A stretch of 30,589 nucleotides of DNA from Candidatus Methanolliviera sp. GoM_oil (GCA_902158735.1 CABGHG010000001.1:1-30589); one strand, 5' to 3'. Counted from the stretch's first letter, positions 13,812 to 29,484 are shown. Numbers and translations are program-made. Notes: a model not told the origin generated them from the sequence alone.

Positions 13812-14606
13812 ATGCCAGTTGAGAAGAAATTCATCATGGAAGGACTCGAAAAATATAGGTTGAATGAGTTCCTCGCGAAATCTCTCGTGACGGCAGGTTA
13901 TGGTGGAGCAGAATTGAACAGGACACCTCTCGGCATGCAGATAATTGTCTATGTTGAAAAACCGGGATTGGTGATAGGGAGAGGTGGCGAAAAGATAAGA
14001 AAAACCACCGAAGAGATCCGAAAGAAGTTTAATTTAGATAACCCACAGATAGAAGTGGTAGAATCTGAGAATGCACGATTAAATCCCCTAATAATGGCAA
14101 ATAGACTTGCGAATTTGTTGGAGAGAGGGTGGTATTTTAGAAGAGCAGGTCACAACATATTGAGAGAGATAATGGCTGCGGGGGCGCTTGGATGCGAGAT
14201 CGTGCTTGCGGGGAAGCTTACTGGTCCAAGAGCGAGGACGGAAAAATTTGTTAAAGGGTACATGATACATGCTGGAGAACCCGTAAATGATATTGTTAAG
14301 AGGGGATACACCATAGCCAAGAAGAAGCTCGGTGTGATAGGAGTTAATGTACGGATCATTCTTCCTTCCGCACGGTTGCCCGACAAATTCGAAGTTAAGG
14401 AGAAAGAAGAAGTGACGGTAGCAGTTAAGGAGAAAGAAGAAGTGACGGTAGCAGTTAAGGATAAAGAAGAAGTGACGGTAGCAGTTAAGGATAAAGAAGA
14501 AGCTACGGTAGTGGTTAAGGATAAAGAAGGAGCTACGGTAGTGGTTAAGGATAAAGAAGAAGCTACGGTAGCAGTTAAGGATAAAGAAGAAGCGACAGAG
14601 GGATGA
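13812..14606 (+). CDS. rps3: 30S ribosomal protein uS3 with a repetitive C-terminal tail
   Basis: KH motif KPGLVIGRGG, ERGWYFRRAG, GKLTGPRARTEKF, followed by 7 decapeptide repeats. Confidence 0.97.
   Translation: MPVEKKFIMEGLEKYRLNEFLAKSLVTAGYGGAELNRTPLGMQIIVYVEKPGLVIGRGGEKIRKTTEEIRKKFNLDNPQIEVVESENARLNPLIMANRLANLLERGWYFRRAGHNILREIMAAGALGCEIVLAGKLTGPRARTEKFVKGYMIHAGEPVNDIVKRGYTIAKKKLGVIGVNVRIILPSARLPDKFEVKEKEEVTVAVKEKEEVTVAVKDKEEVTVAVKDKEEATVVVKDKEGATVVVKDKEEATVAVKDKEEATEG
14394..14603 (+). repeat. In-frame 30-bp tandem repeat, 7 units, encoding VK(E/D)KE(E/G)(V/A)TV(A/V)
   Basis: Unit GTTAAGGA(G/T)AAAGAAG(A/G)AG(TG/CT)ACGGTAG(CA/TG) starts at 14394, 14424, 14454, 14484, 14514, 14544 and 14574 (last unit diverges at its 3' end). 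Confidence 0.98.
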
Positions 14607-14820: not shown

Positions 14821-15162
14821 ATGAGATTAAAACCGACGAACATATTGTATCACGAATTGATAGGGCTTGATGTAACAGTTGAAGATAGCAAGAATCCATA
14901 TCAGATCGGCATAAAGGGAAAAGTCACCGATGAGACGAAGAAGATGCTCGTGATCTCTGAGAGGTCAGAAGAGAAGAAGATTGCAAAGAAAGATGCAAAA
15001 TTCATGTTTAAAAATCCTTTGAGCGATGATTGCGAATCTTCGATTCGCAAACTTGAAGATGGAACATTTTCAAAGGATACTTGGAAGAATGTTCTGATAG
15101 ATGGAAGGCTGTTGGTCGGTAGGCCAGAGGAGAGAATTAAAAAGATGGGGGATACATCATGA
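14821..15162 (+). CDS. rnp1: Ribonuclease P protein component 1 (Rpp29/Pop4) with an internal insertion
   Basis: [44 protein letters not shown]; canonical position between rpl29 and rps17. Confidence 0.93.
15026..15073 (+). repeat. 48-bp dimeric hairpin element inside rnp1, in frame
   Basis: 40/48 ungapped identity to the minus strand of 27806-27853. Hairpins: TTGCGAATC-TTC-GATTCGCAA (15030-15050) and TTGAAGATG-GAA-CATTTTCAA (15053-15073, one G-T pair). Confidence 0.85.
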
Positions 15163-15473
15163 GAAATATTGGTCTAAACGTTAAACCGCCGGAGAGTGAA
15201 TGCAGCGATATAAATTGTCCTTTTCATGGAAATCTCTCCGTTAGAGGACAAGTCTTTGTCGGCAAGGTGGTAAGCTCAGAGGGTAAAACCGTCGTTGTTA
15301 GAAGGGAGATGAACCGATTTGTGAAGAAGTACGAGAGATATGAGAGAAGAAGCTCTAAGATTCACGCTCATGATCCCCCTTGCATCAAAATTAGGGTGGG
15401 AGACCTGGTAAAAGTAGCGGAATGCAGGCCGATCAGCAAGACCAAATCCTTCGTCGTCGTTGAGAGGCTATAA
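15159..15473 (+). CDS. rps17: 30S ribosomal protein uS17
   Basis: [46 protein letters not shown]. Confidence 0.97.
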
Positions 15474-18586: not shown

Positions 18587-18682
18587 ATGTGGGTAAATCG
18601 AAGATTTGCATATGCTCAAGCAAAGCTTGGCATGCCAAAAATCCAAAGGATTTTTGAGCACTCAAAAATCGGAGATTTTTGA
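18587..18682 (+). repeat. 96-bp tetrameric array of triloop hairpins between rpl6 and rpl32e
   Basis: AAATC-GAA-GATTT (18595-18607), CAAGC-AAA-GCTTG (18617-18629), CAAAAATCC-AAA-GGATTTTTG (18636-18656), TCAAAAATC-GGA-GATTTTTGA (18662-18682), plus the palindrome TTGGCATGCCAA (18627-18638). Confidence 0.9.
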
Positions 18683-19069
18683 ATGGGAGAAGAACAGAGA
18701 TTATTGGGAGTTCGCAGCACACAAAAGCATAAAAAGCCAAGATTCTCCAGATATGGCTCTAAATATAAAAAAAGAGTTAAAGAAGCGTGGAGAAGGCCGA
18801 GAGGGAGACAAAATAAACAGAGGCGTGGAAAAGTATCAAAACCGGCGGCTGTTAAGGTAGGATATGGTTCTCCTGCACTTGTTAGGGGGTTACACCCTTC
18901 TGGACGTGAAGACACGCTCGTAAGAAACATTAAAGAGCTGGAAAAAGTCGATCCTGAAAAACAGGTGGCTAGAATCGCGAGAACCGTCGGCAGAAAAAAA
19001 AGATTGGAGATAGAGGAGAGAGCAGAAGAGATTGGGATAAAGATCATTAATATGGTGAAGGAACTATGA
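18683..19069 (+). CDS. rpl32e: 50S ribosomal protein eL32
   Basis: KKPRFSR, WRRPRGRQNKQR, GYGSP, RGLHPSG. Confidence 0.97.
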   Translation: MGEEQRLLGVRSTQKHKKPRFSRYGSKYKKRVKEAWRRPRGRQNKQRRGKVSKPAAVKVGYGSPALVRGLHPSGREDTLVRNIKELEKVDPEKQVARIARTVGRKKRLEIEERAEEIGIKIINMVKEL

Positions 19070-26592: not shown

Positions 26593-26632
26593 CAAAAATC
26601 TTCGATTTTTGGGATCCCACGACGAAGTCGTC
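26592..26632 (-). repeat. Dimeric hairpin element at the 5' break of the transposase fragment
   Basis: CAAAAATC-TTC-GATTTTTG (26593-26611), palindrome TGGGATCCCA (26610-26619), ACGAC-GAA-GTCGT (26619-26631); same layout as 18617-18658. Confidence 0.8.
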
Positions 26633-27805: not shown

Positions 27806-27853
27806 TTGAAAATCTCCGATTTTCAAGTGTGCAAATCGAAGATTTGCACTCAT
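27806..27853 (-). repeat. 48-bp dimeric hairpin element directly upstream of the marker-2 ATG
   Basis: Two perfect 9-bp stems: TTGAAAATC-TCC-GATTTTCAA (27806-27826) and GTGCAAATC-GAA-GATTTGCAC (27829-27849). Confidence 0.9.
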
Positions 27854-29378: not shown

Positions 29379-29484
29379 TGCCGGGGGCGGGATTCGAGCC
29401 CGCGACCTTCAGATATCCCAGGCGTCTCTTCCACACACAAGCACCCTATGAGTCTGACGCCCTAACCAGCTAGGCCACCCCGGC
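29379..29484 (-). tRNA. Elongator tRNA-Met (CAT) with a 32-nt intron (29415-29446); CCA not encoded
   Basis: Acceptor stem GCCGGGG/CCCCGGC-A (G1-C72, so not initiator), anticodon stem TCAGA/TCTGA, anticodon at 29450-29448, intron at 37/38 forming a canonical bulge-helix-bulge (CUCA/UGGG central helix). Confidence 0.95.

Follow-up and report, generated by a model that had tools for sequence, protein, structure and literature searches.

In-frame insertion of a miniature hairpin element into the RNase P protein Rpp29 of the archaeon Candidatus Methanolliviera

Introduction

Until now, selfish palindromes that sit in frame in essential genes have been known as an oddity of Rickettsia and of a small number of REP-rich bacteria. 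The Rickettsia palindromic elements (RPE-1 to RPE-10) are described as sequences of about 100–150 bp found in frame in many conserved, presumably functional genes that are unrelated to one another, at positions that are compatible with the protein fold (Ogata et al. 2000/2002, summarized in PMC10969869 and PMC3733652). REP, BIME and REPIN elements have been described for bacteria and are mobilized by RAYT transposases of the Y1 HUH type (PMC2817692, PMC3116915, PMC3733652). Tiny, multicopy and non-autonomous elements are further represented by MITEs and by the IS200/IS605-derived PATEs of haloarchaea. Our literature search returned no prior description of archaeal in-frame palindromic elements, of archaeal REP/RAYT systems, or of Methanoliparia repeats of the kind reported here; RepRanger counts generic palindromes in archaea, not the AAATC-N3-GATTT family that is the subject of this study (PMC12306157).

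The locus analyzed here lies in a 30,589-nucleotide stretch of the Candidatus Methanolliviera sp. GoM_oil genome (GCA_902158735.1 CABGHG010000001.1:1-30589), hereafter the window. A preliminary description of the window had pointed out a 48-bp palindromic element within the gene of the RNase P protein Rpp29 and had proposed an archaeal analogue of the Rickettsia elements. The comparisons below bear this out at the level of behavior: a dispersed palindromic element has inserted in frame into Rpp29, in an archaeon that is uncultured, degrades alkanes and is related to methanogens. The units are much smaller, and the family has clearly been mobile in recent times. We consider it about 85% probable that the 48 bp represent a miniature mobile element that entered Rpp29 once the lineage had separated from the sister genus and before the sampled Candidatus Methanolliviera species diverged.

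Results

Rpp29 carries 16 additional codons throughout the sampled genus

The MAG that holds the window (G000) comprises 1.70 Mb in 218 contigs and is 75% complete. It was compared with two genomes of the same genus (G001 and G002) and two of the sister genus in the same family (G003 and G004); the closest genomes are those of Candidatus Methanolliviera sp. GoM_asphalt and Ca. M. hydrocarbonicum NM1b. The ribosomal-protein operon in the window has the order uS3, uL29, Rpp29, uS17, uL14, uL24, eS4 and onward, and the identity of the gene between uL29 and uS17 is clear: its ORF matches the Pfam profile RNase_P-MRP_p29 across the whole Sm-like barrel domain (profile positions 2–84 of 84, E 6.2e-22), its PDB matches are the Rpp29 proteins of M. 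jannaschii and Pyrococcus (phmmer to 6k0a_E, E 2e-17), and an AlphaFold2 model based on a 29-sequence alignment (mean pLDDT 80) superimposes on 1v76 and 6k0a_E with target TM values of 0.84–0.85. The coordinates of the gene, of the parts of the element and of related features in the window are given in Table 1.

Table 1. Rpp29, its inserted element and members of the same hairpin family in the window (positions counted from the first nucleotide of the window).
Feature	Position	Strand	Remarks
Rpp29 (RNase P protein component 1) CDS	14821..15162	+	113 aa; ORF listing, Pfam PF01868
Left ATGA, 4-nt direct repeat copy	15026..15029	+	Sequence; ATGT in Ca. M. hydrocarbonicum
Hairpin 1: 21 nt, 9-bp stem, loop TTC	15030..15050	+	Fold; same in all three Methanolliviera species
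AC two-base linker joining the hairpins	15051..15052	+	Sequence
Hairpin 2: 21 nt, 9-bp stem with one G.T pair, loop GAA	15053..15073	+	Fold, alignment
Right direct-repeat copy, degenerated to AGGA	15074..15077	+	ATGA in both congeners
Empty site at the uS17 stop / uL14 start overlap	15472..15473	+	G002 comparison
Same-family hairpin array	18592..18681	+	Ahead of the gene starting at 18684
Further family member CAAAAATC-TTC-GATTTTTG adjoining a TCCTGACGAC-type hairpin	26593..26611		
Closest full-length paralogue (40/48)	27806..27853	-	ATGA-flanked double hairpin, 5' leader of a minus-strand gene

Both congeners encode an Rpp29 of the same length with the same 48 nt (93% and 90% amino acid identity), and the Rpp29 genes of both sister-genus genomes have exactly 16 codons fewer. 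The protein is shorter in all 26 other aligned relatives of the phylum (24 beyond the sister genus), so that the earlier statement on homologues about 16 residues shorter proved correct, and the case that would have spoken against an insertion, orthologues with the same loop but no repeat, was not encountered in these comparisons. Every other archaeal tblastn match among those listed (78 of 117) is shorter as well, with query residues 1–108 covered by 222–267 nt versus 324 nt here. M. jannaschii Rpp29 (6K0A chain E) aligns to residues 3–64 and 91–108 with 21 fewer residues between them, and Methanosarcinales-like Rpp29 sequences have 6–11 extra residues at the same loop; as the length of this loop varies in other lineages, the loop tolerates variation. 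The exact boundaries of the insertion depend on a comparison at 58% amino acid identity. With the insert removed, the sequence NPLSDDTWKN aligns gap-free to NPKCNESWNE of the sister genus. The filled allele is also present in contigs of four further public DNA metagenomes (marine sediment, tar pit), in which neither an empty allele nor joints were seen at the Rpp29 site. Assembly depth over 15034–15064 is 4–5 fold that of the flanks and metagenome contigs break there, both of which would be expected for a repeat.

The insert is a double hairpin flanked by a short direct repeat

The insert comprises a double hairpin of 44 nt and a direct repeat of 4 nt (ATGA), so that the gene has gained 48 nt or 16 codons. 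The right repeat copy, degenerated in the window, reads ATGA also in three other metagenome populations (15075 G to T). Compared with the reverse complement of its closest paralogue, the element at 15026–15073 has 40 of 48 identities, against 7–17 in neighboring registers. RNA folding of either copy yields two adjacent 9-bp triloop hairpins, with energies of −17.0 and −17.9 kcal/mol (z = −3.9 and −4.3; 0 of 200 shuffles were as stable). For the 43-nt pattern of the element, 0.00 chance occurrences are expected in the window, and Rfam at gathering thresholds detected a single tRNA in the window and no match at the Rpp29 element. Hairpin 2 belongs to the TGAAAATG-GAA-CATTTTCA subfamily and has a perfect stem in the congeners, a hairpin identical to hairpin 1 is found at C11:9240-9263, and the same layout of two hairpins joined by AC recurs in a G002-specific in-ORF insertion.

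These observations decide against the view that the loop is ancestral or a local duplication whose likeness to the repeat is due to chance or convergence. The variable length of the loop elsewhere, including the longer Methanosarcinales-like forms, would be in its favor, but it is effectively refuted by a paralogue of like two-hairpin layout that is identical at 40 of 48 positions, the identical copy of hairpin 1 on another contig, the sister-genus gap of exactly 16 residues, and the lack of the long loop in all other archaea compared.

The preliminary description had further noted that the differences between the two copies preserve pairing, and for six of the eight differences this is correct, as they make up three compensated pairs: G-C to T-A and A-T to G-C in the stem of hairpin 1, and the closing C-G to G-C in hairpin 2. 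The remaining two, both in hairpin 2, are an A to G change that leaves a G.T (G.U) pair and one loop base (GGA to GAA). What we could not uphold is the interpretation of these changes as compensatory evolution at the Rpp29 locus, since TGAAAATG-GAA-CATTTTCA and TGCGAATC-TTC-GATTCGCA recur as subfamily variants at other places in the genome. On the sequence comparison, the "compensatory changes" are differences between paralogous subfamilies and as such a real property of the family. Among the three congeneric species, hairpin 1 is invariant, and hairpin 2 differs at a single position, an A to G replacement (Asn to Asp) that has no compensating partner. Nor did the proposed maintenance of the Rpp29 hairpins by selection find support, with 1–2 differences per 48 positions inside the element and 16–22 per 294 in the rest of the gene (p about 0.5).

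The insert lies in a variable loop of the Rpp29 barrel

In the alignment, the insert falls between two strands of the beta-barrel, FxF and VxVDG, whose connecting hairpin loop varies in length. The element keeps the frame, as had been claimed; the peptide originally given for it is read from 15024–15071, with an offset of 2 nt relative to the coordinates given. Residues 65–89 have pLDDT values of 48–61 in the AlphaFold2 model and connect strands 59–64 and 90–94, with about 90 in the remainder of the protein. The three substitutions that separate the species within the insert or next to it are all non-synonymous (D/V, N/D, N/K), which is consistent with an unconstrained peptide. We read this as a tolerated loop that is flexible in the predicted structure. 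It is most likely translated, what speaks for translation being the preserved frame, and would then form a flexible, hydrophilic 16-residue loop that the enzyme tolerates rather than needs. For the M. jannaschii holoenzyme, the described Rpp29 contacts involve Rpp21, the edge of the barrel, where the tail of Rpp30 adds a beta-strand, and the C-terminal tail of Rpp29; the paper is silent on the loop that bears the insert here (PMC6565675). We infer that the inserted residues are likely to be surface-exposed and neutral, and the Rpp29 copy can be described as an old, genus-wide, in-frame insertion that is probably neutral.

The element belongs to an abundant family of small hairpins

The MAG contains 254 perfect hairpins with 8-bp stems and 3-nt loops where 31 are expected, and nearly all of them are of the type AAATC-N3-GATTT. 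Sites with at least 7 of 8 pairs number 231 in 152 clusters, spaced by 23–24 nt, and the modules are found singly, as dimers and in nested arrays. A search for canonical dimers with a strict regular expression was too narrow and recovered 2 copies only. The AAATC-N3-GATTT core is found 241 times in G000, 278 times in G001 and 209 times in G002 (controls, 1–2), 49 and 15 times in the sister genus, and mostly 0–15 times in 146 other genomes of the phylum. When copies were picked by the core alone, each of the outer three stem positions had three pair types and was Watson-Crick paired in 71–81% of the copies, compared with 16–36% just outside the stem.

A few genomes of the phylum are core-rich outliers, and one of them, G031, which belongs to a different family (2.1 Mb, 99% complete), has 104 cores, 36 of them with a TTC or GAA loop, and multi-hairpin arrays of similar modular build (loci L170, L173 and L176); the hairpin family is therefore not restricted to Methanoliparia. 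In the sister genus, G003 has a two-hairpin family array about 70 nt upstream of the Rpp29 start (C3:149478; L008 about 1820–1870). Repeat-derived insertions in Methanoliparia call for caution when odd insertions in marker genes are annotated, and assemblies break at them.

Related genomes show recent mobility and a filter for the reading frame

Scanning the ORFs for further in-frame copies, as a comparison with orthologues, revealed them in several conserved proteins. UvrC of G000 has a 48-nt insert that is missing from both congeners, which are 95–96% identical at the amino acid level, and from G004. This 48-mer recurs identically at C17, C48, C79 and C94 and with one mismatch at C34, the loci being TnpB paralogues and one other ORF. 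A class-I aminoacyl-tRNA synthetase (aaRS) has 16 additional residues in G000 and G001 and an empty site in G002. Relative to the sister genus, GatB is longer by 16 residues, an aRF1-like protein by 14 and CobN by 15, and the CobN insert has ATGCGAC on both sides. Within long ORFs, the hairpins fall in each of the three frames (25, 9 and 27 copies) and have either loop orientation. Beyond the proteins compared with orthologues, more than 10 Pfam-supported ORFs have internal hairpins; hosts include NrdD, an eIF-2B-like protein, a THUMP methyltransferase, UDP-glucose dehydrogenase, IscB-like RRXRR-HNH proteins and several TnpB genes.

The stems of the aaRS hairpin are identical in G000 (L116, C7:4049-6691; HKSKICV) and G001 (L179; HKSSICV), and its loop is GAA in the former and TTC in the latter, which reflects either an inversion of the loop or an independent insertion in opposite orientation. 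The TnpB (IS605 OrfB) paralogues at C34:2395-3768, C25:10762-12051 and C48:8549-9838 and on C63, C120 and C94 contain one to seven in-frame modules each, some of which fall in the 3' region that is expected to encode the omega-RNA as well; in the C34 tnpB, two extra modules (51 nt) are nested between two modules common to C25 and C48. Two IscB-like RRXRR + HNH proteins of about 530 residues (C42:1986-3584 and C4:5920-7503) have two in-frame hairpins each, located within the N-terminal 75 residues, upstream of the Pfam-matched region.

Comparison of 378 kb of G002 against G000, of which about 308 kb aligned, revealed about 25 hairpin-containing indels. Those in ORFs of at least 100 residues are 24, 27, 42 or 48 nt long, and the intergenic ones include lengths of 44, 47, 49, 54 and 66 nt. 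Copies in ORFs change the length by multiples of three and intergenic copies do not, which demonstrates a frame filter. This pattern also bears on the idea that the 48 nt are excised from the transcript as an intron would be, perhaps through the archaeal splicing endonuclease, leaving the Rpp29 protein unchanged. Archaeal mRNAs can contain bulge-helix-bulge introns, but spliced elements need no multiple-of-three rule, and the in-ORF copies keep to it and are free of stop codons in a way that the intergenic copies are not. At Rpp29, both the minimum-energy and the centroid fold consist of two separate hairpins, and the flanks are direct rather than inverted repeats, so that a helix that would bring both junctions into a bulge-helix-bulge is missing; the arrangement of 3-nt bulges flanking a 4-bp helix at both junctions does not occur in the Rpp29 insert. 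With the multiple-of-three rule and the absent bulge-helix-bulge taken together, splicing is very improbable.

In the stretch covered by the window, G002 has at the uS17/uL14 junction (L150 about 15311) a 47-nt double hairpin with a GGAG loop and AATGA on both sides, where the window has the empty site, and at about 18613, 49 extra nt nested between two hairpins distinguish G000 from G002. The presence of related hairpins at several junctions of the ribosomal-protein operon could suggest that the Rpp29 insert is kept for a role of its RNA hairpins in pausing, stability or processing of the polycistronic ribosomal-operon mRNA, with the peptide as a by-product. Both hairpins are stable, with z of about −4, hairpin 1 does not vary among the three species, and the single change in hairpin 2 leaves a G.U pair, all of which would fit such a role. 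However, the conservation of the element does not differ significantly from that of its flanks, the same family is found at arbitrary positions, in all three frames and in unrelated genes, and presence or absence varies between close relatives, which argues for tolerance rather than function. We therefore regard an RNA role as unlikely, and the preferred reading of the Rpp29 copy is still that of a tolerated mobile element.

Target sites and start codons

AAATC-GGA-GATTT hairpins stand immediately in front of 32 start codons in the genome, so that a GGAG lies 8 nt ahead of the ATG; 12 of these 32 have an ATGA 25 nt (monomer) or 48–49 nt (dimer) upstream. In the closest paralogue of the Rpp29 element, the loop and 3' arm of hairpin 2 contain GGAG 8 nt before ATG. 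The positions of the start-codon copies suggest that they may supply ribosome-binding sites. Perfect flanking repeats of ATGA or ATGC were found at 7 of 168 clusters genome-wide, with about 0.7 expected. Most family members, including the UvrC-type 48-mer, have no flanking duplication, so that the subfamilies may not all be explained by one mechanism. The Rpp29 copy belongs to the ATGA-flanked class, and its site is not a start codon but an internal G-ATGA-T within two Asp codons; the frame is preserved because the insert equals a dimer plus 4 nt.

Copies are kept in three kinds of place: at start codons, where GGAG-bearing loops come to lie 8 nt before the ATG, between existing hairpins, and inside genes if the change in length is a multiple of three and the site is tolerant. 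The movement itself might be brought about by a single-strand, hairpin-recognizing activity of the HUH/Y1 type or by another structure-specific activity, which is our best guess, or alternatively by a DDE enzyme that makes 4-bp target duplications.

Candidates for mobilization

No autonomous partner of the hairpin family was recognized in the 75% complete MAG. Full genes of Y1 transposases (PF01797) occur twice, in both cases as IS605 tnpA beside tnpB with end hairpins of the CCCC...GGGG type, and the flanks shown contain none of the AAATC type. As the only Y1 genes are of this IS605 type with unrelated end hairpins, we did not adopt a RAYT/REPIN model, and a PATE model was rejected because the LE and RE hairpins of the resident IS605 differ in sequence from the AAATC hairpins. 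The AAATC hairpins within IS605 elements are secondary insertions only, some inside tnpB and one in the LE hairpin loop. In several IS copies, a 51-nt hairpin dimer is inserted in the left-end hairpin loop (cccctatg^ctttagcttgggg), at C5:6512-6554 and C133:1162-1204 and on C161, C103, C22 and C35. The sole DDE_Tnp_1 ORF examined merely contains hairpins inside it, and a search for solitary half-site termini around a transposase-sized ORF gave noise only.

A different route would be spread by template switching during replication or by gene conversion between hairpins, in which ATG-containing microhomologies set the junctions and fold-back copying keeps the stems perfectly complementary. Such a process would be in line with flanking repeats of 4, 5 or 7 nt or none, with the frequent position of new modules between or inside existing hairpins, including the IS605 end-hairpin loop, with the inverted aaRS loop between unchanged stems, and with the lack of a recognized dedicated transposase in the MAG. 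On the other side, exact 48-nt units with sharp identical ends at unrelated loci resemble the excision and integration of a defined element, and the strong preference for ATGA or ATGC suggests sequence-specific recognition. We consider template switching between hairpins a live alternative to transposition, albeit the less probable one by our estimate.

Discussion

How does the Rpp29 element relate to the described systems? Like the RPEs, it belongs to a dispersed palindromic repeat that lies in frame in many unrelated conserved genes (Rpp29, UvrC, GatB, the aRF1-like protein, CobN and the class-I aaRS, each as judged against orthologues) and whose presence differs between related species. Unlike the bacterial RPEs of about 100–150 bp, the units are hairpins of 21–24 nt, typically in dimers of 44–48 nt, and the host is an archaeon. 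In comparison with what is described for the RPEs, the family also uses all three frames and both orientations, and many of its copies sit on start codons with a Shine-Dalgarno-like GGAG. The parallel is one of behavior, with no apparent sequence relationship, and neither Rfam nor any other family gave a hit at the Rpp29 element.

With the REPs, the family shares short (20–40 nt), high-copy hairpins that form imperfect palindromes, clustered mosaic arrays, stem covariation between subfamilies, and occasional in-frame copies in ORFs. The GTAG/CGTC tag of REPs is not a general feature here: GTAGT...ACTAC is present in some subfamilies only, and some copies have GTAG...CTAC stem extensions, whereas the Rpp29 copy and its ATGA-flanked class have no GTAG tag. 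Unlike in REP-RAYT systems, no RAYT flanked by AAATC hairpins was found in the 75% complete MAG. The non-autonomous, tiny and multicopy nature of the family is also that of MITEs and of the PATEs, and the ATGA-class subfamily has inverted termini, as each hairpin is palindromic, together with a short flanking direct repeat or a fixed target tetranucleotide (ATGA/ATGC). Such repeats flank the Rpp29 copy and at least 7 others, and most copies are without them. In contrast to MITEs, 44 nt is below the usual size range, and no autonomous IS with the same termini was recognized in the MAG; in contrast to PATEs, the hairpins differ from those at the ends of the resident IS200/IS605 elements.

The Rpp29 element is a selfish element of RPE-like behavior, novel in being archaeal, ultra-small and ATG-targeting. 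Beyond this locus, we propose tentatively, and at slightly less than even odds, that Methanoliparia and at least one other lineage of the phylum may host undescribed ultra-small hairpin transposable elements, with a 21–24 nt module and a 44-nt dimer, that target ATG-containing tetranucleotides; these would act as portable ribosome-binding sites at start codons and, as 48-nt insertions, add 16-residue loops to essential proteins (Rpp29, UvrC, GatB, aRF1 and tRNA synthetases), and they would be mobilized by an enzyme not yet linked to such elements in archaea. The family points to a hairpin-mobilizing activity in archaea, and its natural pairs of filled and empty alleles at 95% identity provide material for studying how proteins tolerate loop insertions of 16 residues.

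Two further features of the window may be recorded. The C-terminus of uS3 (14363–14602) is encoded by seven 30-nt tandem repeats (KEKEEVTVAV units), and this array is length-polymorphic, as G000 has two units (60 nt) more than its congener G002. On the minus strand, an Rfam tRNA match with 59 bits spans 106 nt at 29379–29484, a length that implies an intron; ARAGORN at default settings reported no tRNA in the window.
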